DNA from: Heterodontus francisci
Taxonomy: Eukaryota
DNA: 64,000 bases
NCBI RefSeq assembly: GCF_036365525.1
Contig: NC_090393.1
Span: forward strand, 54,824,488 to 54,888,487
Direction of reading: 5' to 3'
Shown here in pieces: positions 1,257 through 52,527 of the stretch (position 1 is the stretch's first letter; every line of letters starts with the position of its first letter). The notes beneath the pieces are model-generated. The model did not search any database. It was not told the origin of the DNA and worked only from the letters and a program-made list of their open reading frames with translations. A program made the position numbers and the translations under genes.

Positions 1257-1607
1257 TGCCCAGATTCAGTTTAGTTCCTTTCCCGAAAGTGAATTCCCCA
1301 GCACTGGAATCCCAGGCAACACAATAATAGTCAGCGGTATCCCCGGATTGTACATCGGTGATGGTTAAATGCATAACGTTGCTCGACGTGTTCCTGGATC
1401 CAGTGAATCGATCAGGAATCCCCGAACCCCTGGTGGAATCATAGTCCCGCCAAACAAAGACAGGGGCACTGCCGGGTTTCTGCCAGTACCAGCTCGTGTA
1501 GTAGGTGCCCATGCTGCCTCCGGATATGGTGCAAGTGATTTTAACGGTTTTTCCCTGTGAAGTTGACATAGACGCTGGCTGAGTTAGTACAGTACCCGCG
1601 TTGGTAC
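1257..1607 (-). CDS. IGL: Ig light chain (lambda/type II) germline-joined V-J exon, cluster 1
   Basis: 351-nt exon between acceptor ttttcactag|GTACC and donor GGCA|gtaagt. Encodes TNA-GTVLTQP...ITC...WYWQKPG...DYYC-VAWDSSAGEFT-FGKGTKLNLG: both Ig cysteines, the Trp, and the J motif FGxG in one frame with no RSS or intervening DNA. Confidence 0.97.
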
Positions 1608-9073: not shown

Positions 9074-11230
9074 AAAAAGAACAAAGAACAAAGAACAGTA
9101 CAGCACAGGAACAGGCCATTCGGCCCTCCAAGCCTGCGCCGATCTTGATGCCTGCCTAAACTAACACCTTCTGCACTTCCGGGGCTTATATCCCTCTATT
9201 CCCTTCCTATTCATGTATTTGTCAAGATGTCTCTTAAACGTCGCTGTCGTATCTGCTTCCACCACCTCCCCTGGCAGCAAGTTCCAGGCACTCACCACCC
9301 TCTGTGTAAGGAACGTGCCTCGCACGTCCCCTCTAAACATTGCCCCTCGCACCTTAAACCTATGTCCCCTAGTAACTGACTCTTCCACCCTGGGAAAAAG
9401 CTTCTGACTATCCACTCTGTCCATGCCGCTCATAACTGTGTAAACCTCTATCATGTCGCCCCTCCACCTCCGTCGTTCGAGTGAAAACAATCCGAGTTTT
9501 TCCAACCTCTCCTCATAGCTAATGCCCTCCAGACCAGGCAACATCCTGGTAAACCTCCTCTGTACCCTCTCCAAAGCCTCCACGTCCTTCTGGTAGTGTG
9601 GTGACCAGAATTGCACGCAATATTCTAAGTGTGGCCTAACGAAGGTTCTGTACAGCTGCAACATGACTTGCCAATTTTTATACTCTATGCCCCGACCGAT
9701 GAAGGCAAGCATGCTGTATGCCTTCTTGACTACTTTATCCACCTGCATTGCCACTTTCAGTGACCTGTGGACCTGTACGCCCAGATCTCTCTGCCTGTCA
9801 ATACTCCTAAGGGTTCTGCCATTTACTGCATACCTCCCACCTGCATTAGACCTCCCAAAATGCATTACCTCACATTTGTCTGGATTAAACTCCATCTGCC
9901 ATTTCTCCACCCAAGTCGCCAACCGATCTATATCCTGCTGTATCCTCTGACAATCCTCATCATTATCCGCAACTCCACCAACCTTTGTGTTGTCCGCAAA
10001 CTTACTAATCAGAAAAGCTACATTTTCCTCCAAATCATTTATATTTACTGCAAACAGCAAAGGTCCCAGCACTGATCCCTGCGGAACACCACTAGTCACA
10101 TTCCTCAATTCAGAAAAACACCCATCCACTGATACCCTCTGTCTTCTATGACCGAGCCAGTTCTGTATCCATCTTGCCAGCTCACCTCTGATCCTATGTG
10201 ACTTCACCTTTTGTACCAGTCTGCCATGCGGGACCTTGTCAAAGGCTTTACTAAAGTCCATATAGATAACATCCACTGCCCTTCTTTCATCAATCATCTT
10301 CGTCACTTCATCAAAAAACTATATCAAATTAGTAAGACACGACCTCCCCTTCACAAAACCATGCTGTCTCTCGCTAATAAGTTCGTTTGTTTCCAAATGG
10401 GAGTAAATCCTGTCCCGAATAATCCTCTCTAATAGTTTCCCTATCACTGACGTAAGGCTCACCAGCCTATAATTTCCTGGATTATCCTTGCCACCCTTCT
10501 TAAACAAAGGAACAACATTGGCTATTCGCCAGTCCTCTGACACCTCACCTGTAACCAATGAGGATGCAAAGATTTCTGTCAAGGCCCCAGCAATTTCCTC
10601 CCTTGGCTCCCTCAGTATTCTAGGGTAGATCCCATCAGGTCCTGGGGACTTGTCTACCTTAATGCTTTGCAAGACACCCAACCCCTCCTCCTTTTTGATA
10701 ATGAGATGACTGAGACTATCTGCACTCCCTTCCCTAGGCTCATCATCCACCAAGTCATTCTCTTTTGTGAATACTGATGCAAAGTACTCATTTAGCACCT
10801 CGCCCATTTCCTCTGGCTCCACACATAGATTCCCTTCTCTGTCCTTGAGTGGGCCAACCCTTTCCCTGGTTACCCTCTTGCTCTTTATATACGTATAAAA
10901 AGCCTTGGGATTTTCCTTAATCCTGTTTGCCAATAACGTTTCATGACCTCTTTTAGCCGTCCTAACTCCTTGCTTAAGTTCCTTCCCACTGTCTTTATAT
11001 TCCTCAAGTGCTTCGTCTGTTCCTAGCCTTCCAGCCCTTACAAATGCTTCCTTTTTCTTTTTGACTAGGCTCACAATATCCTGCGTTATCCAAGCTTCCC
11101 GAAACTTGCCAAACTTGTCTTTCTTCCTCACAGGAACATGCTGGTCCTGGATTCTAATCAGCTGACGTTTGAAAGACTCCCACATGTCAGATGTTGATTT
11201 ACCCTCAAACAGCCGCCCCCAATCTAAATT
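9074..11230 (-). mobile_element. CR1 LINE (HER1-like), 5'-truncated, young copy A
   Basis: KSPGPDGIYPR, YMDFSKAFDKVPH, GVPQGSVLGP, KFADN, RPHLEYCVQFWSP. One frameshift near 10315. (TTCTTTG)n tail. Confidence 0.93.
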
Positions 11231-12929
11231 CCTGTCTATGAGGCATGTAGCCTCCAGCTCCGATGGCCCCTCCACCCGGCCCAAACTACTGCCAAGAGAG
11301 CGCTTCCACGGAGCTTCCAGGCTCTGTAGTCAGCAGGAGTGCACTCTGACGGTGGATGATCCCAGTGGAGTCCTCCCCGTCCTCCCCATTAGTTACTTAA
11401 TTGATCATTATTGACTAGCTGCAGCTGCCAGGTGAGGAGCTGCTGCCGATGTTCACCTGCTTCCGACATGATTGCTGGGACGTGGGAATGTTTTGGAGTG
11501 CAACTCGACTCCGCTATCTCTGATCATTCTCCCAGTCCCGCCTAAAAACCCGCCTCAACCTCGGACCGGGAAAATTCCACCTGATAGCTTGGTTTCTCCC
11601 TCCACGATTGCTGCCGGACCTGCTGAGTATCTTTATTTAAGATTTCCAACATTTGCAACTTGTTGGATGGGGTTGAGCGGCCGACTTACGGTGCTATGTT
11701 TCTCTTGGGAGAAATTTATTTACACAGGGAGTAGTGAGAATGTGGAACTCACTGTCACATGGAATAGCTGAAACAGATAGCACTGTTGCAGTAAAGGGGA
11801 GGTTTTTTGCATGCATGAGGGAGGAAGGGATAGAGACATATAAGGGCAAGGTGATTAAAAAGTAATGAGTTGGGGGAGGCTCTTGTGGACTATGAACATG
11901 GCACTGACCATTTGGGTCGAATGGCTTGTTTCTGTGCTACGTATTCCAGGTAATTTTATGTAATGATAAGCCATTTAAAATGCCACGCATTCATGCCAAG
12001 TTTGAGCATCTTTATCAAACCTAACCTTCTTCGCTCGAAGGCGAGCAACCCCAACTTTTCGTATCTCTCCACATATTTGAAGGCGCTCATCTCTGGTATC
12101 ATTCTTGTACATCTCTTCTGTGCCCTTTTCATGGCCTTGACATCCTCTGTAAAGTGTTCTTCCCAGAATTGAACACAATACTTCATCTGAGGCCTAACCG
12201 GTGATTTCTTACAACAAGACTGATACTAACCCTACATGTTTCTGCGCGTTGACGGAGGCATTAAGATTTCCCCAGTCATGTCTAATAAAATATGTAGCAG
12301 TAAGCAGTGTTTCCTGCCATTCTTTTTCCAAACCTGCCTAAATGGGTATACTTCCATTTAGTTCCGATTCCTGAAAACCAGTTGAACAAAACTCTGACGA
12401 GAATCAAGGGTTGGGCCCTTCTGGTGTACAGTGAATGGGTGGCAAGGTTGAATTGCGAGTGCTTGCCGAAAGTGTGAGGAATATGAAGCCCGATTTGTGA
12501 GGTTCATTGATTCCGTTATAAATGTTTCAGGTTTCCATTGGAAATCTCCCTCGTTGTTTCCTTGTTGTTACACAGAATGAGTACTGCTGTAAAGTGCAAA
12601 AGGTAAATTCTCCTCTTTAACTAATCGTCATGAATTACAACTTGTCAGTGCTGTTCTGCGTGAACAAAGACAAGGGATTCCTCATAGTCTCACGATACCA
12701 CTTCCTATGGACATATCGCTGCATGCAATGATCATGCAGGAGGAGAGAATCAGCGCAGAGTTCAGCAAGGCAGCTTCAGGCAGCATTTAAGAAGGATGCA
12801 TGCAACCAGATCTTACTCTATATGAGAAACTTTACGAGGAGCTCTGCATAAGTAAAGCTCTGCATACTTAAAGAGGTAATAGGGCAACTCTGTAAATGGG
12901 CCTACAGCCATGTTCATCTACTCACTTTG

Positions 12930-16339: not shown

Positions 16340-18077
16340 AAATGGGCGAGGTGCTAAATGAGTACTTTGCATCAGTATTCACAAAAGAGAAGGACTTGGT
16401 GGATGATGAGCCTAGGGAAGGGAGTGTAGATAGTCTCAGTCATCTCATTATCAAAAAGGAGGAGGTGTTGGGTGTCTTGCAAAGTATTAAGGTAGATAGG
16501 TCCCCAGGGCCTGATGGGATCTACCCTAGAATACTGAGGGAGCCAAGGGAAGAAATTGCTGGGGGCTTGACAGAAATCTTTGCATCCTCATTGGCTACTG
16601 GTGAGGTCCCAGAGGACTGGAGAATAGTCAAAGTTGTTCCTTTGTTTAAGAAGGGTGGCAAGGATAATCCAGGAAATTATAGGCCGGTGAGCCTTACGGC
16701 AGAGGTAGGGAAACTATTAGAGAGGATTATTCGGGACAGGATTTACTTCCATTTGGAAACAAACGAACTTATTAGCGAGTGACAGCATGGTTTTGTGAAG
16801 GGGAGATCGTGTCTTACTAATTTGATTGAGTTTTTTGAGGAAGTGACGAAGATGATTGATGAAGGAAGGGCAGTGGATGTTATCTATATGGACTTTAGTA
16901 AAGCCTTTGACAAGGTCCCGCATGGCAGACTGGTACAAAAGGTGAAGTCACACGGGATCAGAGGTGAGCTGGCAGAGGGTGGTGATACAGAACTAGCTCA
17001 GTCACAGAAGACAGAGGGTATCAGTGGATGGGTGTTTTTCTGAATGGAGGGCTGTGACTAGTGGTGTTCCGCAGGGATCAGTGCTGGGACCTTTGCTGTT
17101 TGTAGTATATATAAATGATTTGGAGGAAAATGTAGCTGGTCTGATTAGTAAGTTTGCGGACAACACAAAGGTTGGTGGAGTTGCGGATAATGATGAGGAT
17201 TGTCAAAGGATACAGCAGGATATAGATCGATTGGATACTTGGGCGGAGAAATGGCAGATGGAGTTTAATCCAGACAAATGTGAAGTAATGCATTTTGGAA
17301 GGTCTAATGCAGGTGGGAGGTATACAGTAAATGGCAGAACCCTTAGGAGTATTGACAGGCAGAGAGATCTGGGCATACAGGTCCACAGGTCACTGAAAGT
17401 GGCAACACAAGTGGATAAGGTAGTCAAGAAGGCATACGGCATGCTTGCCTTCATCAGTCGGGGCATAGAGTATAAAAATTGGCAAGTCATGTTGCAGCTG
17501 TACAGAACCTTAGTTAGGCCACACTTACAATATTGCGTGCAATTCTGGTCGCCACACTACCAGAAGGACATGGAGGCTTTGGAGAGGGTACAGAGGAGGT
17601 TTACCAGGATGTTGCCTGGTCTGGAGGGCATTAGCTATGAGGAAAGGTTGGAAAAACTCGGATTGTTTTCGCTGGAACAACGGAGGTGAAGGGGCGACAT
17701 GATAGAGGTTTACAAAGTTATGAGAGGCATGGACAGAGTGGATAGTCAGAAGCTTTTTCCCAGGGTGGAAGAGTCAGTTACTAGGGGACATAGGTTTAAG
17801 GTGCGAGGGGCAATGTTTAGAGGGGACGTGCGAGGCAAGTTTTTTTCACAGAGGGTGGTGAGTGCCTGGAACTTGCTGCCAGGGGAGGTGCTGGAAGCAG
17901 ATACGATAGCGACGTTTAAGAGACATCTTGACAAATACATGAAGAGAAAAGGAATAGACGGATATGGGCCCCGGAAGTGCAGAAGGTGTTAGTTTAGGCA
18001 GGCATCAAGATCGGCGCAGGCTTGGAGGGCCGAATGGCCTGTTCCTGTGCTGTACTGTTCTTTGTTCTTTGTTCTTT
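16340..18077 (+). mobile_element. CR1 LINE, 5'-truncated, young copy B
   Basis: Same family as copy A in inverted orientation. Stops at 16780 and 17687, frameshift near 16980, same tail. Confidence 0.93.
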
Positions 18078-25038: not shown

Positions 25039-26621
25039 CACAAAGGTGACCGCGGTGACTGCAACAACTACCATGGAATCTCCCTGCTCAGCATAGTGGG
25101 GAAAGTCTTTGCTCGAGTCGCTCTGAACAGGCTCCAGAAGCTGGCCGAGCGCGTCTACCCTGAGGCACAGTGTGGCTTTCGTGCAGAGAGATCGACCGTT
25201 GACATGCTGTTCTCCCTTCGTCAGATACAGGAGAAATGCCGTGAACAACAGATGCCCCTCTACATTGCTTTCATTGATCTCACCAAAGCCTTTGACCTCG
25301 TCAGCAGACGTGGTCTCTTCAGACTACTAGAAAAGATTGGATGCCCACCAAAGCTACTAAGTATCATCACCTCATTCCATGATAATATGAAAGGCAGAAT
25401 TCAACATGGTGGCTCCTCCTCAGAGCCCTTTCCTATCCTTAGCGGCGTGAAACAGGGCTGTGTTCTCGCACCCACACTTATTGGGATTTTCTTCTCCCTG
25501 CTGCTTTCACATGCGTTCAAGTCCTCTGAAGAAGGAATTTTCCTCCACAAAAGATCAGGGGGCAGGTTGTTCAACCTTGCCCGTCTAAGAGCGAAGTCCA
25601 AAGTACGGAAAGTCCTCATCAGGGAACTCCTCTTTGCTGACGATGCTGCTTTAACATCTCACACTGAAGAGTGCCTGCAGAGTCTCATCGACAGGTTTGC
25701 GGCTGCCTGCAATGAATTTGGCCTAACCATCAGCCTCAAGAAAACAAACATCATGGGGCAGGATGTCAGAAATGCTCCATCCATCAATATTGGTGACCAC
25801 GCTCTGGAAGTGGTTCAAGAGTTCACCGACCCAGGCTCAACAATCACCAGTAACCTGTCTCCAGATGCAGAAATCAACAAGCGCATGGGAAAGGCTTCCA
25901 CTGCTATGTCCAGACTGGCCAAGAGAGTGTGGGAAAATGGCGCACTGACACGGAACACAAAAGTCCGAGTGTATCAGGCCTGTGTCCTCAGTACCTTGCT
26001 CTATGGCAGCGAGGTCTGGACAACGTATGTCAGCCAAGAGCGACGTCTCAATTCATTCCATCTTCGCTGCCTCCGGTGAATATTTGGCATCAGGTGGCAG
26101 GACCGTATCTCCAACACAGAAGTCCTCAAGGCGGCCAACATCCCCAGCTTGTACACACTACTGAGTCAGCGGCGCTTGAGATGGCTTGGCCATGTGAGCC
26201 GCATGGAAGATGGCAGGATCCCCAAAGACACATTGTACAGCGAGCTCGCCATTGGTATCAGACCCACCAGCCGTCCATGTCTCCGCTATAAAGACGTCTG
26301 CAAACGCGACATGAAATCCTGTGACATTGATCACAAGTCGTGGGAGTCAGCTGCCAGCGTTCACCAGAGCTGGCGGGCAGCCATAAAGACGGGGCTAAAA
26401 TGTGGCGAGTCGAAGAGACTTAGTAGTTGGCAGGAAAAAACAGAGGCGCAAGGGGAGAGCCAGCTGTCCAACAGCCCCGACAAACAAATTTCTCTGCAGC
26501 ACCTGTGGAAAAGCCTGTCACTCTGGAATTGGCCTTTATAGCCACTCCAGGCGCTGCTTCACAAACCACTGACCACCTCCAGGCGCGTATCCATTGTCTC
26601 TCGAGATAAGGAGGCCCAAAG
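25039..26621 (+). mobile_element. 5'-truncated RTE copy (same family) with 31-bp TSD
   Basis: Near-identical to the 3' 1.6 kb of the intact copy; premature TGA at 26077-26079 and small frameshifts. AATATGTACTGTCCAGACCACCAGCAGGCGT at 25008-25038 and 26622-26652. Confidence 0.95.
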
Positions 26622-28929: not shown

Positions 28930-29680
28930 CTCTCCCAGATTCATTATTACATTTACTAACGACATTTTGTATGATTATGACAAATGTAAACTAGCCCGAC
29001 TTGCCCTTCTCGACGTGTCTGCAGACCTTGACACAGTTGACCACGCCATCTTCCTCCAACACCTCTACTCTGCTGCCCAGCTGGTAGAGCTGCTCTCAGC
29101 TCGTTCCTTTCTTATCTATCTATTAGTTGCCAATTATAGTCACTTGCATTTGCTTCTCTTTCCACTCCTGCGCCAATACCTCTGGTGCCGCCACCACCAG
29201 CCCCCCCCCCCACCCCCCCCCCCCAAGGATTTACCCTTGTCCCCCTTCTATTTCTCATATACATGCATCCCCTTAGTGACATAACCCAAAAACAGTGTTA
29301 GTTTTCACATGTGCGTTGACAATACTCACCTTTACCTCACCAGCTCCTCACTTGACTGTTTCTAAATTGTCATACTCCACTGTTGGAAAAAAAACTGCTT
29401 GACTGATATCCAGTACTGTATGATCAGAAATTTCCTCCAATTAAACATTAGGAAGGCTGAAGCCATTATCCTCAGTTCTCACCACAAATTCTATTCCCCA
29501 GCTACTGACTCCACCCTTCTCGCCGCAACTGTCTGAGGCTGAATCTGACTTTCGCAGCCTCTGTGTCATATTTGACCACCAAGATGAGCTTCTGACTACA
29601 CAACCACGCCATCACCAAGACCGCCTATTTCCAACTGCATAATATCCTTGCTTGGCCCCTGTCTTAGTTCATCTGATTTA
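28930..29680 (+). mobile_element. L2-like LINE remnant
   Basis: LALLDVSADLDTVDHAIFLQHL. Related L2 3' pieces at about 5600-6100 and 36660-37250. Confidence 0.6.
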
Positions 29681-30175
29681 AAGTGAATTGATTGGAATCG
29701 AATGTTTGAGTTAAATATTGCCAAATATTGCCTGTCAGCATTGATTTCAACTTTTATCCCAAATTTTGATTTATTTGTTTTTACGTTTCGTTTAAATGTT
29801 CAGTTCCTGGAGTACTGTCTGCGATAGATTGCGTCAGAGCAGTACATTTAAACATAATTCTGTGTCTCCGTATTATTTTTAAGCTTTAGTATTTTCTGAC
29901 CCCATTATTTTGCAAAGATTGAATTTCATTTTAAGAATTTTCATCTGTTCCCTTTCATGTAGCAAAAGTAGAAATATTTCTCTGATTATATGTTCTCTAG
30001 AGCTGTGGGCCCCTATCATTGTACAACTTACACGAATGAGGTTCCCTTCTAATAAATTCCTCACAGCTTTGTAGAGTGGCACCGATTTTTAAAAGACTTA
30101 AAGAAAGTAAAATGTTGATTCTAACTTTTATGTTAAATAAGATTAAATTTTCTTTCATTGCTTTCCACTTTTCAG

Positions 30176-30503
30176 ACCCCCGAAGTCCCTCTGTGTCTGT
30201 ACTTCCACTTTCAGCGGATCAAATCGCAACAAAGAACACGGCGACCCTGGTGTGTTTTAGTGAGCGGTTTTAACTGTAGCTGTAGCTGTAGCGATTGAGT
30301 GGACTGTAGATGACAGTGTTAGAGGGAATGGTGTTGAGACCAGTCGGATCCAGCAGGAGACAGACAACACGTTCAGTATGAGCAGTTATCTGACTATGTC
30401 AGCCTCAGAGTGGAACTCACACGAGCTTTCCTCCTGTGTAGTTAAACACGACACTCAGGCAAACCCGCTTAAAACAAGCATTGCTAGGTCCAACTGTATG
30501 TGA
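30176..30503 (+). pseudogene. IGLC: Orphan Ig light chain C exon, frameshifted
   Basis: Acceptor ccacttttcag|AC CCC CGA. 328 nt versus 323 for the intact C: +1 T after the first Cys codon gives TAA at 30271-30273, and (TGTAGC)x3+G replaces 15 nt (+4). Downstream reads IEWTVDDSVRG...KTSIARSNCM*. No leader or V-J seen upstream on this strand. Confidence 0.95.
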
Positions 30504-33500
30504 TTCAAGAAGAGTTTCTTTAAAAATAAAATCCATAATCAGCTATTACATGTTTGATTTTAAATGGAGCATTTCAAATCACGATAATTGCGCAGTTTGT
30601 CAGTTGTATCCCGCTGTCTATATTTTACATTGTGGTACTCTGAAATCATCAAAGTTTCATTGTAATGTTACAAATATCGCAGAGTAATTGAACGTCTATT
30701 CCATTATTTCAGGCGTGGTTACTCTTTTCTGTCCGATATTCCTGAAGGTATTTATAGCAGCTTCCTAATTTTGACTAAATAGTGAGGTTTAATTCTCTAT
30801 AATATGTACCTACACCCCACATGGACTGCAGCGGTTCAAGAAGGCAGCTCACCACCACCTTCTCAAAGGCAATTAGGGATGGGCAATAAATGCTGGCCTC
30901 GCCAGCGTTGCCCACATTCCATAAATATATATTCTACACATTTTATATAAAGTCATTGGCATTAGTTGGAATGGAGAGATTACATATAGGATGGATGCCT
31001 TTAATTTTACATTTCATGTACGTTATCTTACAATACATTTTTGAAAATCGACCTAGCTGATTGTGTCCGTTCAGGGAAGGAGCTGACCGCTATGTCTATG
31101 TTTTTTGACAAGAATTCAAAACACATAGCGGAATTCCTTTCAAATTATCGGGTACACAAATTCAGGGCAAACCATATGACTGCCACCCCTTTGAATAACT
31201 CGGACCTAACGCGGTGCCGTTTCTATCTTTGCATGACTTTTTTTTTCAAAACTACCCAAATACTTTAATCATTATTCAATGATGGTTTTAGTGAAACAGC
31301 TGCTGTGTATAGCAAGTCAGTCATAACTACAAATTGTGTGGGGCCTTTGACTGGAACGAGCTCAGACCAGAGTATGTTTTTGTTTAAGCTTAGCTTCAAA
31401 CAAATCACAAACTCGGTACGGTATCCCTTTAGTACATCGTCTTCTTTGAAAGGATTTAGGACAATACATACCGTGCTAAAAGATAGCAACACAAGCTGTT
31501 CAGGCCATAAAAAATGCAATAAATTGCTGGCTAATTTCTAGTACGATAGCGTACAAAAGCAGGTTTTTGTGATATATATAAGGAGTTTTTTCAGTTTTGG
31601 TCTCCATACTAAAAAATGACAATAAAAGGACTGGAGAAGGTGTAGAAAACATTTGCAAGGTTGTTACTAAAATTGGGGTGATGTAATCGTCAAGAAAAAT
31701 GAACAGGTTGAACTCTTCTCCGGAAAAAAGAAGACTGGGGAGCTTTGAGAGAGGGCTTTAAAATTGAGAAACTGCGATGGACGTGGATAGTAAACTATTC
31801 CCACTGTGGGTGAGTCCAGAACAGCGAGGCATAAGTATAAGATAACCACCTACATAAGAAATAAATCGTTTATTTGAAGATATGGGTTTGTAATTGGGTG
31901 GGTGCCAGGAGAGGGAGAGTAGGGATTAAGGTTTCGTTCTCTGATTGGCTGGATGTGACAAGTGGATTTCCAAAGCTCCATGACCTCCGCTTTTCATCAC
32001 ATATATTAATAACTTGGATAAAGAGATAGAGCGTTGTATATACATGTTTGCAGATCGCACTCATATAGGAGGCCCTGCAAGTTGCGTGACTTTGCGATGG
32101 AAATCCCATAGATAGACTAAATACATGGGCAAAAATTATGGCGGATGTAGTTCAACGGTGGGGTGGGGTGGGGGACGGGTGGTGGATAGGGTACGCAGAC
32201 GCATGAACTCATCCACATTGAATCTGAGAATGACAAATCCGAATATTTTTATAATGCTAAGAGACTAGGAGCTGTGGATGAGCGAACGGATTTAGGTTTC
32301 CGCGTACGTAAATCACTAAATGCTAGTGTACAGACGCAAAACGTGATAAAAAAAAAGTTGAATGGATGTTGGTCTTTATCACAAAGAGATTGGAATTAAA
32401 ATGTGAGGGAGTAATGCTTTCCTGCACAGAGCCTTGATAGACCACATCTGGAGTTCCGCATTCAATTTTCGGCAGCAAAAGTCATGGAAAGTGCATTGGC
32501 CTTAGAAGGGGTATAGTGCATAATCATCAGGATGCTGTCATTTTTTAATATTCAATTATGAGGCCCGATTGTATCACCGTGATTTGTATTCCCTTGAGTT
32601 TTAAGCTGGAGGAGTGATCTAGTCGAAGTATTGAAAATAATTAACAAATGTTAGAATGGGTATAGAGAAGCTATTTCCACTTTGAAGAAATCCAGCGAAA
32701 GAGGAAGCAATCTTAAAATTAGAGTTAGGGAGTCCAATGGCGGTGATTCAAAGTAAATTCAAAGTCCAATTGAAAGAGACCTCCCTTCTCTGTCAAGTAG
32801 TGGCGCTATGGAGCAGACATAACGAAACTGCAGGGAGTCTCAACTATCTATGGAACGGAGCAAGGTAACATTGGCTAAAATAAACTCAACGTACAAATGG
32901 GAAAATAAACTAATCGTATTAATATAATTTGAAGTTTAAAAGGATAAAAATAATGAAAATTCTCCCCCTATTCTGCTATTCCCTGAGCAATTTAAAGTGG
33001 GGGGTTGCATTTTATAGTAAGGGATTCATGAGCCATGAGAAAACTGCCCTCTAGAAAAGATTCAAGTCACAATTCCAATATGCATTCATTTCAGCTGGAG
33101 AGACTCGGACGGGCTTCGCTGTTTGCCGCTATGTAAGGAATGAATCAGGATTTATCTTGACTTTCAAGTGTAATGAATAGTTTAGCCAGATTTGGATTGT
33201 CTTACAAGATGGCTCATTCAATACCAATGATTCATCGCAATATCAAAAGGCTGGACACCATAAGCATACATATCACTAACTAATTAATTTTCTCACACTA
33301 CGGTGGTTGCTATCGCATATTTCCCAATCAATGATTCCAATGATATAGCTGCTACGAAATCAATATTTAGCATTGCTCAACAGAATCTATATTAGTAAAA
33401 GCATAATATCCAGATTTATTTATTACAATAGCAGAGCTTATGCTGAGTTAAACAACATGGCAGAAAGTAATCGTTGTCAAAGATTACAGTGTTTATTTTG

Positions 33501-38302: not shown

Positions 38303-38730
38303 GTGGTTGGGTTGGGGGGGGGGGCACTGTCGTTGGTGATGGCGAGCTACGAACTGTGCATGGGTAGAATGATTTAGGCGTCCAAGTGCAGAAACCCTGA
38401 AAAGCTGGTGCGTGGGTACAAAAATAATTGTAATGGCTAATGAAATGTTGGCCTTTATCTCAAAAGAATTGGAATCCAGATAGTTAGTCGTCATGACACA
38501 GCTGTACAAAGCTCTGGTTCTATCCAATATGGAGTACTGTGTTCCATTCTGGCCACTGCACTTTAGGAAGGATATAATGAACTTGAATGTGGTGCTGCGA
38601 AGATTCACCATAATGATATCATGGTTTAGATGTTACATAATGAGGACAGGCTGCATAGCCTACACTTGTTCTTTCTTTTTCTTTTGGGCCTCCTTATCTC
38701 GAGAGACAATGGATACGCGCCTGGAGGTGG

Positions 38731-41700
38731 TCAGTGGTTTGTGAAGCAGCGCCTGGAGTGGCTATAAAGGCCAATTCTGGAGTGACAGGCTCTTCCACAG
38801 GTGCTGCAGAGAAATTTGTTTGTTGGGGCTGTTGCACAGTTGGCTCTCCCCTTGCGCCTCTGTCTTTTTTCCTGCCAACTACTAAGTCTCTTCGACTCGC
38901 CACAATTTAGCCCTGTCTTTATGGCTGCCCGCCAGCTCTGGCGAATGCTGGCAACTGACTCCCACGACTTGTGATCAATGTCACACGATTTCATGTCGCG
39001 TTTGCAGACGTCTTTATAACGGAGACATGGACGGCCGGTGGGTCTGATACCAGTGGCGAGCTCGCTGTACAATGTGTCTTTGGGGATCCTGCCATCTTCC
39101 ATGCGGCTCACATGGCCAAGCCATCTCAAGCGCCGCTGACTCAGTAGTGTGTATAAGCTGGGGATGTTGGCCGCTTCAAGGACTTCTGTGTTGGAGATAT
39201 AGTCCTGCCACCTGATGCCAAGTATTCTCCGAAGGCAGCGAAGATGGAATGAATTGAGACGTCGCTCTTGGCTGGCATACGTTGTCCAGGCCTCGCTGCC
39301 GTAGAGCAAGGTACTGAGGACACAGGCCTGATACACTCGGACTTTTGTGTTCCGTGTCAGTGCGCCATTTTCCCACACTCTCTTGGCCAGTCTGAACATA
39401 GCAGTGGAAACCTTACCCATGTGCTTGTTGATTTCTGCATCTAGAGACAGGTTACTGGTGATAGTTGAGCCTAGGTAGGTGAACTCTTGAACCACTTCCA
39501 GAGCGTGGTCGCCAATATTGATGGATGGAGCATTTCTGACATCCTGCCCCATGATGTTCGTTTTCTTGAGGCTGATGGTTAGGCCAAATTCATTGCAGGC
39601 AGACGCAAACCTGTCGATGAGACTCTGCAGGCATTCTTCAGTGTGAGATGTTAAAGCAGCATCGTCAGCAAAGAGGAGTTCTCTGATGAGGACTTTCCGT
39701 ACTTTGGACTTCGCTCTTAGACGGGCAAGGTTGAACAACCTGCCCCCTGATCTTGTGTGGAGGAAAATTCCTTCTTCAGAGGATTTGAACGCATGTGAAA
39801 GCAGCAGGGAGAAGAAAATCCCAAAAAGTGTGGGTGCGAGAACACAGCCCTGTTTCACACCACTCAGGATAGGAAAGGGCTCTGATGAGGAGCCACCATG
39901 TTGAATTGTGCCTTTCATATTGTCATGGAATGAGGTGATGATACTTAGTAGCTTTGGTGGACATCCGATCTTTTCTAGTAGTCTGAAGAGACCACGTCTG
40001 CTGACGAGGTCAAAGGCTTTGGTGAGATCAATGAAAGCAATGTAGAGGGGCATCTGTTGTTCACGGCATTTCTCCTGTATCTGACGAAGGGAGAACAGCA
40101 TGTCAATAGTCGATCTCTCTGCACGAAAGCCACACTGTGCCTCAGGGTAGACGCGCTCGGCCAGCTTCTGGAGCCTGTTCAGAGCGACTCGAGCAAAGAC
40201 TTTCCCCACTATGCTGAGCAGGGAGATTCCACGGTAGTTGTTGCAGTCACCGCGGTCACCTTTGTTTTTATAGAGGGTGATGATGTTGGCATCGCGCATG
40301 TCCTGGGGTACTGCTCCCTCGTCCCAGCACAGGCATAGCAGTTCATGTAGTGCTGAGAGTATAGCAGGCTTGGCACTCTTGATTATTTCAGGGGTAATGC
40401 TGTCCTTCCCAGGGGCTTTTCCGCTGGCTAGGGAATCAATGGCATCACTGAGTTCCGATTTGGTTGGCTGTATGTCCAGCTCATCCATGACTGGTAGAGG
40501 CTGGGCTGCATTGAGGGCAGTCTCAGTGACAGCATTCTCCCTGGAGTACAGTTCTAGGTAGTGCTCAACCCAGCGGTCCATCTGTTTGCGTTGGTCAGTG
40601 ATTATGTCCCCCGATTTAGATTTGAGGGGGGGGATCTTCTTGATGGTTGGCCCAAGAGCTCTCTTCATGCCATCATACATTCCTCTGATGTTTCCGGTGT
40701 CTGAGGCCAGCTGAATATGACTGCATAGGTGTTGCCAGTAGTCGTTTGCGCAACGCCTAGCTGTTCTTTGTGCAGTACTTCTGGCTGCTTTAAGTGCTGC
40801 GGATGTTAAATCGCTGGGGGCTTTCTTGTAGTTCAAAAGTGCAATGCGCTTAGCGGCTATGACAGGTTCCAGCTCTTCATTATGAGATTGAAACCAGTCT
40901 GCATTTCTCTTCGCACTTTTGCCGTAGGTGGTCAAAGCTGACTCATAGATGGCGTCTCTGATGTGGGCCCACTTGGTCTCAGCATCCCCTGTGGGAGTGT
41001 TTTGAAGGGCTGTTACAAGTGAATTTAGAAATTTTTGTAACAGCTGTGGGTGAGAAATTCTGCTCGTGTTGATGCGCGGGTGGCCCTTCTGCTTGGAATG
41101 ATGCAACTTCTTTGGTCTGAGTCTAACCTTGCTGCACACCAGGGAGTGGTCGGTGTCGCAGTCCGCACTGTGGAAGCTGCGTGTGATTTGAACACTGTTT
41201 AAGGCGGCTCGCCTTGTGACAATGAGGTCTAGCTGGTGCCAACGACGTGATCTTGGGTGCCTCCATGAAACCTGGTGACAGGGTTTAGTGTGAAAGAACG
41301 AGTTGGTGATGCAGAGGTTATGATAGGTACACAACTCAAGCAGTCTCTGCCCGTTCTCATTCATCCTTCCAACGCCATAGCGCCCAAGGGAGGAGGGCCA
41401 TGAGTCATGGTCGGCCCCAACCCTGGCATTAAAGTCCCCCAGCAGGAATAGGTGTTCGGTGTTGGGGATGCTGCTAATGATGTTATGGAGTTGTTCATAG
41501 AACTGGTCTTTAGCTTCAGGTGCGGAACAGAGTGTTGGAGCATAGATGCTGAGTAGGTGTACTGGACCAGAGGTGGTGAGCAGTCGGATGGACAGTATGC
41601 GTTCCGAGCCATTTGAGGGAGGCTCTATCATGCTGAGCAAGGAGTTTCTGATGGCGAAGCCCACTCCATGCTGTCTTGGTTCTTCAGGATCCCTGCCCTG

Positions 41701-44387: not shown

Positions 44388-46619
44388 AAGTTTTAGGGTA
44401 CTTGTGGATAAGGATAAGAGTAGTCCTCAGGTGAAGGTGCAAAATTGGGGGAAGGCTAATTATAACAATATTAGGCAGGAACTGGAGAAATTAGATTAGG
44501 GGCGGCTGTTTGAGGGTAATCCAACATCTGACATGTGGGAGTCTTTCAAACGTCATTTGATTAGAATCCAGGACCGGAATGTTCCTGTGAGGAAGAAGGA
44601 TAAGTTTGGCAAGTTTCGGGAACCTTGGATAAGGAGGGATATTGTGAGCCTAGTCAAAAAGAAAAAGTAAGCATTCATAAGGGCTAGAAGGCTGGGAACA
44701 GACGAAGCCCTTGTGGAATTTAAGGAAAGTAGGAAGGAACTTAAGCAAGGAGTCAGGAGGGCGAAGAGGGGTCATGAAAATTCGTTGGCAAACAGGATTA
44801 AGGAGCATCCCAAGGCTTTTTATATGTATATAAAGAGCAAGAGGGTAACCAGAGAAAGGGTTGGCCCACTCAAGGACAGAGGAGGGAATCTATGTGTGGA
44901 GCCAGAGGAAGTGGGCGAGGTACTAAATGAGTACTTTGCATCAGTATTCACCAAAGAGAAGGACTTGGTGGATGATGAGTTGGGGGAAGGGATTGTAGAT
45001 AGTCTGGGCCGTGTCGTTATCAAAAAGGAGGAGGTGTTGGGCGTCTTGCAAAGCATTAAGGTAGATAAGTCCCCAGGGCCTGATGAGATCTACCCTTGAA
45101 TACTGAGGGAGATAAGGGAAGAAATTGCTGGGGCCTTGACAGAAATCCTTGTATCCTCATTGGCTACAGGTGAGGTCCCAGAGGACTGGAGAATAGCCAG
45201 TGTTGTTCCTTTGTTTAATAAGGGTAGCAAGGATAATCCAGGAAATTATAGGCTGGTGAGCCTTATGTCAGTGGTAGGGAAATTATTAGAGAGGATTCTT
45301 CGGGACCGGATTTACTCCCATTTGGAAACAAATGAACTTATTAGCGAGAGACAGCATGGTTTTGTGAAGGGGAGGTCGTATCTCACTAACTTGATCGAGT
45401 TTTTTGAGGAAGTGACAAAGATGATTGATGAAGGAAGGGCGGTGGATGTTGTCTATATGGACTTCAGTAATGCCTTTGACAAGGTCCCTCATGGCAGACT
45501 GGTACAAAAGGTGAAGTCACACGGGATCAGAGGTAAGCTGGCAAGATGGATACAGAACTGGCTCGGTCATAGAAGACAGAGGGTAGCAGTGGAAGGGTGC
45601 TTTTCTGAATGGAGGGCTGTGACTAGTGGTGTTCCACAAGGATCAGTTCTGGGACCTTTGCTGTTTGTATTATATATAAATGATTTGGAGGAAAATGTAG
45701 CTGATCTGATTAGTAAGTTTGCGGATGACACAAAGGTTGGTGAAGTTGTGAATAGTGATGAGGATTGTCAGAGGATACAGCATGATATAGATCGGTTGGA
45801 GACATGGGCGGAGTTTAATCTGGACAAATCGGAGGTAATGCATTTTGGAAGATCTAATACAGCTGGGAAGTATACAGTAAATGGCAGAACCCTTAGGAGT
45901 ATTGACTGGCAGAGAGGTCTGGGCGTACAGGTCCACAGGTCACTGAAAGTGGCAACACAGGTGGATAAGGTAGTCAAGAAGGCATACGGCATGCTTGCCT
46001 TCATCGGTCGGGCATAGAGTATAAAAATTGGCAAGTCATGCTGCAGCTGTACAGAACCTTAGTTAGGCCACACTTAGAATATCGTGTGCAATTCTGGTCG
46101 CCACACTACCAGAAGGACGTAGAGGCTTTGGAGAGGGTACAGAAGAGGTTTACCAGGATGCTGCCTGGTCTGGAAGGCATTATCTATGAGGAGAGGTTGG
46201 ATAAACTCGGGTTGTTTTCACTGGAATGACGGAGGTGGAGGGGTGACATGATAGAGGTTTACAAAGTTATGAGTGGCATGGACAGAGTGGATAGTCAGAA
46301 GCTTTTTCCCAGGGTGGAAGAATCAGTTACTAGGGGACATAGGTTTAAGATGCGAGGGGCAAAGTTTAGAGGGGACGTGCGAGGCAAGTTCTTTACACAG
46401 AGTGTGGTGAGTGCCTGGAACTTGCTGTCGAGGGAGGTGGTGGAAGCAAGTACGATAGCGACGTTTAAGAGGCAACTTGACAAATACATTTTTAGGATGG
46501 GAATAGAGGGATACGGTCCCCAGAAGTGCAGAAGGTTTTAGTTTAGACAGGCATCAAGATCGGCGCAGTCTTGGAGGGCCGAATGGCCTGTTTCTGTGCT
46601 GTACTGTTCTTTGTTCTTT
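44388..46619 (+). mobile_element. CR1 LINE, 5'-truncated, copy C
   Basis: Same RT motifs (KFADD), several stops and a frameshift, same 3' end. Confidence 0.93.
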
Positions 46620-47928: not shown

Positions 47929-48251
47929 TCAGAAACAACTTGACCGCGCGATACTTGTTTTAAGCGGGTTTGCCTGAGTCTCGTGTTTAACCACACAGGA
48001 GTAAAGCTCATGTGAGTTCCACTCTGAGGCTGGCAGAGTCAGATAACTGCTCACACTGAACGTGTTGTCCGTCTCCTGCTGGATCCGACTGGTCTCAACA
48101 CCATTCCCTCTCACACTGTCATCTACAGTCCACTCAATCTCCACAGCTCCCGGGTTAAAACCGCTCACCAAACACACCAGGGTCGCCGTGTTCTTTGTTG
48201 TGATTTGATCCGATGAAGGCGGAAGGACGGACACCGAAGGCCCTCGCGGAT
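47929..48251 (-). CDS. IGLC: Ig light chain constant (C) exon, cluster 2, intact
   Basis: Acceptor tttcctttctag|AT CCG CGA GGG; phase matches the J donor (…LG-N-PRGPSVSVLPPS). C1-set motifs ATLVCLVSGF-P, W, YSCVVKHE, penultimate Cys (SSCF*). J-C intron is 48252-51984. Confidence 0.97.
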
Positions 48252-51984: not shown

Positions 51985-52335
51985 TGCCCAGATTCAGTTT
52001 CGTTCCTTCCCCGAAAATGAATCCACCAGCCCTGGAATCCCAGCCACCACAATAATAATCAGCGGCATCCTCAGATTGTACATCGGTGACGGTTAAATGC
52101 ATAACGTTCCTCGACGTGTCCCTGGACCCAGTGAATCGATCAGGAATCCCCGAACCCCTGGTAGAATCATAGTCTCGCCAAACAAAGACAGGGGCACTGC
52201 CGGGTTTCTGCCAGTACCAGCTCGTATGGTAGATGCCCATGCTGCCTCCGGACATAGTGCAAGTGATTTTGACGGTTTTTCCCTGTGAAGTTGAGATGGA
52301 CTCTGGCTGAGTTAGCACAGTACCCGCAATGGTAC
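51985..52335 (-). CDS. IGL: Ig light chain (lambda/type II) germline-joined V-J exon, cluster 2
   Basis: 351-nt exon, acceptor tttcaccag|GTACC, donor GGCA|gtaagt. Encodes TIA-GTVLTQP...DYYC-GGWDSRAGGFI-FGEGTKLNLG, open frame, about 30 substitutions and no indels versus cluster 1. Confidence 0.97.
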
Positions 52336-52478
52336 CTGGTGAAATAAAAGAGTGATTAAAATGAGAGATTAGTGACACTTCAGTAAAACCATGTAAGGTA
52401 GTTGCAATCCATATTCGCCCAACTCAAATACTGCACCCGATCAGCGTAAATACAAAAATAAGTGAGTTCCATACTTAC

Positions 52479-52527
52479 ATTGCAAACAGAGCGTCAGGGC
52501 TGCGAGAACATGAAGCCACTCATTCAT
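52479..52527 (-). CDS. IGL: Leader exon of IgL cluster 2
   Basis: ATG at 52527, 49 nt encoding MNEWLHVLAALTLCLQ + T, gtaagt donor, phase 1. Confidence 0.95.

Follow-up and report, generated by a model that had tools for sequence, protein, structure and literature searches.

The lambda light chain of cartilaginous fishes, known as type II in the horned shark and NS3 in the nurse shark, is encoded in V-J-C miniclusters (PMC5192425; PMC2193156; PMC5985310). According to these sources, every lambda (type II) gene of the cartilaginous fishes studied so far is joined in the germline (PMC5192425), and a 23/12 order of the recombination signals is of the lambda type (PMC5985310). The passages on type II and NS3 in the same papers make no mention of a C exon undergoing conversion, and we found no report of such conversion in shark lambda clusters, in a literature search that covered subscription journals poorly. 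Comparable processes are described elsewhere. Exon-restricted gene correction has been reported for the T-cell receptor (TCR) genes C-beta 1 and C-beta 2 (PMC2188480; also cited in PMC2685407, referring to Rudikoff, 1992), and the C domains of shark UrIg2 undergo gene conversion (PMC12227049). Yeast whole-genome duplicates show a concerted evolution that is restricted to the coding part, and that comes to an end when the copies diverge or acquire indels (Fawcett and Innan, 2011; PMC3924837).

The window analysed here, a stretch of 64,000 nucleotides (G000:C23:54824488-54888487) in the 6-Gb genome of a horn shark, contains a lambda (type II) IgL C exon on the plus strand at 30176..30503 (L011). 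This exon has an AG acceptor (30174-30175), a terminal TGA (30501-30503) and an AATAAA signal at 30525. Its reading frame runs into a stop after codon 31, owing to one additional T in a T run (30255..30258) and to a slippage patch of three TGTAGC units with a net gain of four nucleotides (30275..30292). Upstream lies a remnant of the J-C intron of ~500 nt (29674..30175), which is 71–72% like that of the tandem, L002-type clusters. Homology stops at about 29674, and V and J are absent there. The 3' flank of ~1.4 kb (30504..31961) resembles the L002-type clusters at about 70–77%, in several pieces; the tandem clusters concerned are located further upstream. A V on the L011 strand was sought by blastn of the genome (10 V matches, none of them there), by tblastn, and by nhmmer in the window, and none was found. 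L011 has neither an open C frame nor an upstream VJ on the same strand, and is an orphan pseudo-exon rather than a working cluster.

The comparison partner of L011 is an intact lambda C exon of 106 codons on the minus strand (47929..48251; L001), to which it is 88% identical at the DNA level. An alignment of L011 with the plus strand of 47929-48251 gave only noise and was discarded. L001 encodes an intact Ig C1 domain of 106 residues (P0001), which matches the C part of a named horn-shark lambda-like light chain at 100% identity and the lambda chains of most other sharks listed at 82–92%. With named shark lambda chains nearest to this C1-set domain, L001 is itself lambda; a PDB search returned generic Ig matches only. 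The L001 cluster further comprises a germline-joined VJ exon with an open frame (51987..52323, minus strand) and a leader exon (52477..52527, minus strand), the latter located by tblastn with residues 1-17 of P0002. The same arrangement, a V-J-C minicluster with a germline-joined VJ, was found in eight further clusters. The neighbouring cluster L010 has its germline-joined VJ at 1259..1595 on the minus strand, while its C exon lies just beyond the window edge.

Several other features of the window and its surroundings deserve mention. The V exons of L001 and L010 differ at 10 of 54 four-fold sites. Around the C exons of the two clusters, the flanks share about 74% identity, and the promoter-V homology amounts to 75% over 1.5 kb; on this comparison, the V exons of these two clusters may also have been partly converted. 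The window also carries an inverted pair of 1.58-kb repeats that are 96% identical (25040-26620 and 38683-40265), and a 94% copy of this repeat sits in the insertion that splits another C pseudo-exon of the set (L013/L016). An interspersed repeat of 1.7–2.1 kb is present in three copies that are 91–95% identical (9076-11231, 16340-18077 and 44487-46619).

The divergence between L011 and L001 is very unevenly distributed along the exon. The first-pass annotation had counted 11 differences in the first 41 nt, 9 in the last 27 nt, and only 11 in the long core between them, and our alignment returned the same counts: 11/41 in the 5' edge (30176..30216), 9/27 in the 3' edge (30477..30503), and 11/238 in the core (30217..30476) after the indel patch, exon positions 96-112, had been left out. 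Its further observation that silent sites are alike only in the middle of the exon also holds, since third positions differ at 10/16 codons in the edges and 5/70 in the core (Fisher p=5e-6, for boundaries taken from the annotation and picked after looking). A scan of silent divergence with two rates and free boundaries placed the core at codons 12-98, and none of 400 permutations within classes of degeneracy and CpG context matched this result. The flanks of the two exons are barely alignable, as had been stated; over 300 nt on each side the alignment is weak, with z=4 and 7 relative to shuffles. The 5' edge of L011 has diverged to the level of the flanking intron, with an identity of 0.72 to L002 over the first 50 nt compared to 0.6–0.8 in the flanks, and the identity of its core to the paralogs is 0.89–0.96.

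This pattern is shared by the whole family. A DNA search gave 19 matches on the chromosome: 10 full-length copies of 93–100% identity to the query, L011 with 88%, three divergent copies with ~70%, and five pieces in decay. We compared one copy from each of six lineages defined by their flanks, and all 15 pairs proved U-shaped, with a pS of 0.05–0.14 in the core, 0.24–0.69 in the 5' edge and 0.18–1.03 in the 3' edge. In the five ancient lineages that remain when the pseudo-exon is excluded, 9 of 14 silent sites were variable in the edges against 8 of 72 in the core, a contrast reached by 0/400 CpG-stratified permutations. The outcome was 0/400 in each of the three sets to which such stratified permutations were applied.

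The clusters themselves are old, although ten sister exons of L011 are 93–96% identical. Flanks of 300 nt are 59–76% identical between lineages over aligned columns, and over the same length those of one cluster (L009) aligned with other lineages no better than shuffles. V and C exons were compared in the seven clusters with a joined V, omitting L009, whose V is split, and the sister pair L001-L010. Across the resulting 11 between-lineage pairs, four-fold sites differed by 31–45% in V (13/42 to 17/38) and by only 0–12% in the C core (0/37 to 4/34), while the C-edge sites of the same pairs differed by 33–50% (4/12 to 7/14). Because the edges have diverged about as far as V, they behave as ordinary neutral DNA, and it is the core that is anomalous. 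L009, located 1.07 Mb away, illustrates the contrast: its V protein is ~40–45% identical to the others, whereas its C DNA is 93% identical. In the same pairs, silent sites of the core have diverged far less than the flanks and the linked exons, as is expected after conversion.

The genealogies of core and flanks also conflict. Scored by parsimony steps, none of the 10 informative core sites fits the tree of the 3' flank without an extra step. L009 and L010 have changes in common at exon positions 92, 106 and 107 of the core, those at 92 and 107 being silent, and yet their flanks do not align. An AU test on the core rejected the clade formed by the six tandem copies in the flank tree (p-AU 0.047); for the grouping of L001 with L010 the same test was not significant (p 0.073). 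The edges, strongly diverged as they are, cannot simply be called unconverted: only 3/9 and 1/7 of their informative sites fit the flank tree, which points to older mosaics or homoplasy. For instance, the last 27 nt of L011 show one difference from L009, with which its flanks are unalignable, but seven from its flank relatives. GC-biased gene conversion found no support, since the GC content of four-fold sites in the core (21–23 of 38–40) is like that of the edges and V.

Reads of other organisms are in line with these results. Runs were found by exact 31-mers of the exon, and four of the 24 listed, all from other organisms, were compared with it. In the DNA runs of organism D (X18) and organism F (X17), the core assembled into a single contig of 215 nt at depth 207 and of 162 nt at depth 108, respectively, while the edge pieces had depths mostly of 5–25, with single ones at 68 and 75. 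A deep core with split edges is to be expected if the copies have the same core but differ in their edges, although depth is not copy number here. At exon positions 88 (S29N) and 104 (silent), runs X10, X18 and X17 each carry a uniform letter other than that of all 12 horn-shark copies; for position 128, and likewise for 140, such fixation was seen in a single DNA run. Core substitutions are therefore lineage-wide and common to old paralogs, as judged from collapsed contigs and protein trees with orthology unmapped.

The protein trees were built from 118 of 120 listed proteins, one teleost protein and one unnamed protein having been dropped. The V tree keeps two families apart with a single change, and both families are present in sharks and rays, whose split is dated at about 306 Ma (PMC3692497). 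In the C-core tree, the same families are mixed (15 changes). Changes at the level of orders number 8 for the C core and 22 for V, so that the C core follows the taxon. The nearest neighbour came from the same species for 70/114 C cores but for only 45/114 V domains, in a count without shuffled labels. Homogenisation is weaker in rays than in sharks (0.15–0.27 versus 0.05–0.21 between V families). Together, the family-wide U-shape, the contrast between V and C, the conflict of trees, the data from other organisms and the protein trees bear out the proposal of the first-pass annotation that the C core evolves in concert, by ectopic conversion across clusters.

L011 itself appears no longer to take part in this process. 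The annotation had taken it for an old homogenised cluster, and what stands of this is a core that was probably homogenised at one time; the exon is a V-less, frameshifted pseudo-exon and, of the 11 full-length copies, the one least recently homogenised. Private core substitutions number 0–3 in the nine intact copies, 5 in L010, 9 in L011 (outside the indel patch) and 15 in L012. Similarly, the longest run that L011 has identical to any other copy is 41 nt, compared to 86–282 nt in intact copies. Nine of the 11 core differences between L011 and L001 are L011's own. When two private changes beside the patch are included (n=11), 8 replace G/C by A/T and 5 are silent, as expected for a drifting pseudogene; that pseudo-exons drift in this manner argues against a cold spot of mutation in the core. 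We estimate at roughly 85% the probability that gene conversion in the germline, involving the other lambda C exons of the array, once homogenised the core of L011, and that this core has since escaped. The conversion would follow from the comparison of sequences, no event having been observed directly.

Other decayed C exons in the array form a graded series. L010 has a TAG at codon 83, L012 a deletion with stops, and L013/L016 and L014/L015 are two exons that are each split by an insertion and are 83–91% identical to the intact ones. Three divergent lambda-like C exons from the same region (L017, L018 and L019), at about 70% DNA identity to the main set, have escaped from it. L018 and L019 form a pair of their own (95%), and L017 is without the terminal cysteine. 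No V remnant was found in the stretches examined around L012, L013/L016 or L017.

The best reading of the family as a whole is likely a homology-limited interlocus gene conversion, with selection on the protein as its seed. Purifying selection on the C domain would preserve the likeness of the coding part, whereas V, the introns and the 3' UTR would drift apart. The exon would then be the sole stretch with sufficient homology for strand exchange between loci. If conversion tracts need homology where they end, they would rarely reach the outer 30–40 nt, and the edges would drift neutrally. In L011, once V and frame were lost, mutations and the two indels likely cut the homology that further conversion needs.

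In a toy simulation run with 15 parameter sets, the U-shape was clear in only two and faint in a third, and both clear cases needed homology at the two tract ends. Models with a one-ended requirement gave either a flat homogenisation of the whole exon or none. However, the simulated U is shallower than the observed one, with edges at 0.09–0.15 and flanks at 0.32–0.34. Other light-chain sets of this genome (L041/L046/L047, L042/L043/L049/L050 and L018/L019) also show homogenisation bounded by the exon, but without a U-shape. A type I pair has 2 differences in about 320 nt while its upstream flank is unalignable, and a sigma-like pair differs at 2/57 four-fold sites. As other isotypes are homogenised up to the 5' edge of the exon, the rule that spares the edges is not general, and is only partly understood.

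An alternative explanation might be that purifying selection acts on the nucleotides of the core, through a regulatory or RNA element or codon choice, without any conversion. The apparently slow change of the core between species (2/48 silent sites against 12–19% in edge-plus-intron pieces, organism D) would suit this explanation, as would the fact that functional copies alone stay alike. Nevertheless, we consider it improbable. Selection cannot yield silent differences that are fixed across a lineage in old paralogs (positions 104, 128 and 140), nor silent changes common to clusters with unrelated flanks (positions 92 and 107), and the choice of runs by exact 31-mers biases the between-species comparison towards low divergence. 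Possibly, purifying selection acts on top of conversion.

More improbable still is a template of reverse-transcribed light-chain mRNA, or a duplication of the exon alone, in place of chromosome-to-chromosome conversion. Either would explain why the similarity is bounded by the exon, why it extends as far as the 5' splice edge, next to an unalignable intron, in three other sets (sigma-like, type I and divergent lambda), and why non-expressed copies drop out. Yet the 3' UTR, which belongs to the same transcript, is not homogenised between lineages (60–76%), and germline transcripts of B-cell genes would be required. Boundaries at the coding limits are equally expected if selection supplies the homology.

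That the edges are merely rich in CpG and mutate faster is hardly credible. The 5' edge does exceed the core in CpG observed/expected (1.3–1.4 versus 0.57–0.62) and in GC (0.61–0.66 versus 0.51), but the contrast in variable sites persists in each class: 6/9 in the edges versus 7/35 in the core for CpG-prone silent sites of the five lineages, 3/5 versus 1/37 for non-CpG silent sites, and 3/11 versus 1/32 for four-fold transversions. Non-CpG four-fold sites (2/3 versus 1/11, p 0.09) are too few. Moreover, the edges match the four-fold divergence of V, and it is the core that is abnormally low. The stratified permutations thus rule out CpG hypermutation as sole cause; the CpG richness of the 5' edge adds to the contrast and does not explain it. 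Just as implausible is a chimera of assembly or polishing in which reads from paralogs overwrote the cores: although the array is repetitive, the 9 private substitutions, 2 indels and paralog matches of at most 41 nt in the core of L011 are the reverse of what overwriting would leave. A collapsed core with split edges also recurs in independent runs from other organisms, and 307 nt of the exon are covered by a single contig of organism B, with 12 differences.

One aspect of the data may go beyond gene conversion alone. Relative to organism D, the core (window 47996-48210) has 2 fixed silent changes at 48 sites, or 3 with one that is private to L001, whereas the edge-plus-intron pieces differ at 11/91, 17/91, 21/140 and 11/70 sites (12–19%). 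At neutral rates of 0.20–0.12 the binomial p is 0.002–0.06, and 0.002–0.16 across rates and counts, figures that are biased by the selection of runs through exact exon words and of pieces through 80% likeness, and that lack a single-copy control. Organisms C, D and F carry N29/G44/Q97, a combination present in 12/21 named squalomorph proteins, 0/35 galeomorph proteins and 1 skate protein, which suggests that these organisms are probably distant from the horn shark. There is weak evidence, a lead, that silent sites of the core are slow between shark lineages. According to the review PMC3924837, conversion leaves the rate at which neutral sites diverge between species at its normal value, and in all 15 of our simulations with unbiased conversion the divergence of the core from its ancestor was at the neutral level. 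Since unbiased conversion does not slow the divergence between species, a slow core is not explained by conversion alone; it would require that conversion amplifies a weak selection (the Mano-Innan effect) or that repair is biased.

The cluster L009/L029 (G000:C23:55946925-55950500, minus strand) stands apart, as its V and J are not germline-joined. Its V is open and ends in the heptamer CACAGCG, a 23-nt spacer and a nonamer (ACAAAACTA). After ~300 nt follows a signal with a 12-nt spacer (CACGGTG / ACAAAAACT) and then an open J. We take these motifs to be recombination signals, on the strength of their likeness to the consensus. The C exon is intact and 93% identical to that of the joined clusters. 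By its sequence, L009 is an unjoined lambda gene, whose rearrangement is predicted. We found no report of a split shark lambda gene in the literature, with subscription journals poorly covered. L009 would alter the rule that shark lambda genes are all joined, and is a candidate ancestor of the joined genes. A light-chain cluster elsewhere (L036; G000:C34:15399196-15399498) is apparently single-copy, has a V of its own and is 47–48% like lambda C, which makes it a candidate control free of conversion.

A wider picture, which we regard as doubtful, would be that of a conversion club extending over more than 1 Mb, with V families that predate the split of sharks and rays, a lambda gene with 23/12 signals that still rearranges, against the rule stated for sharks, and silent sites that are near-frozen across shark superorders. 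If true, the club would be a natural test of whether conversion multiplies weak selection at silent sites, or of a biased copy-correction, and its pseudo-exons, once dated, would record the threshold of escape.

The consequences for dating are more immediate. Light-chain isotypes of cartilaginous fishes and the ages of their clusters are often read from trees of the C region. If C cores are overwritten in each lineage, then the identity of two C regions tells when they were last converted rather than how old their clusters are, and V families that predate the separation of sharks and rays look like recent duplicates.

Compared with the systems described so far, the present clusters are like type II/NS3 lambda in that one germline-joined VJ is combined with one C. 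L011, without V, J and frame, departs from this plan, and so does L009, a member of the homogenised set that is split with 23/12 signals, contrary to the rule stated in PMC5192425. As in the account of TCR C-beta, constant exons of an antigen receptor have been homogenised within species while the duplicates are old. However, the TCR case concerns two tandem genes, whereas shark lambda comprises at least 10 miniclusters in both orientations over 1.3 Mb and, unlike what is reported for TCR C-beta, shows a silent-site U-shape within the exon and pseudo-exons at several stages of escape. Shark UrIg2, as described, is similar in that C1 exons of a shark Ig are homogenised within species and trees cluster by species; its exons are repeated inside one gene, while those of lambda belong to separate V-J-C clusters. 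As in the yeast duplicates, selection appears to keep the coding likeness that sustains conversion, non-coding DNA escapes, and indels end the process, although the lambda core looks slower between species than the normal neutral rate given in the yeast review. Shark lambda adds to a known process a new example of unusual clarity, observed here in a dead copy, and an array with intact, stop-codon, frameshifted and insertion-split copies shows how conversion ends.
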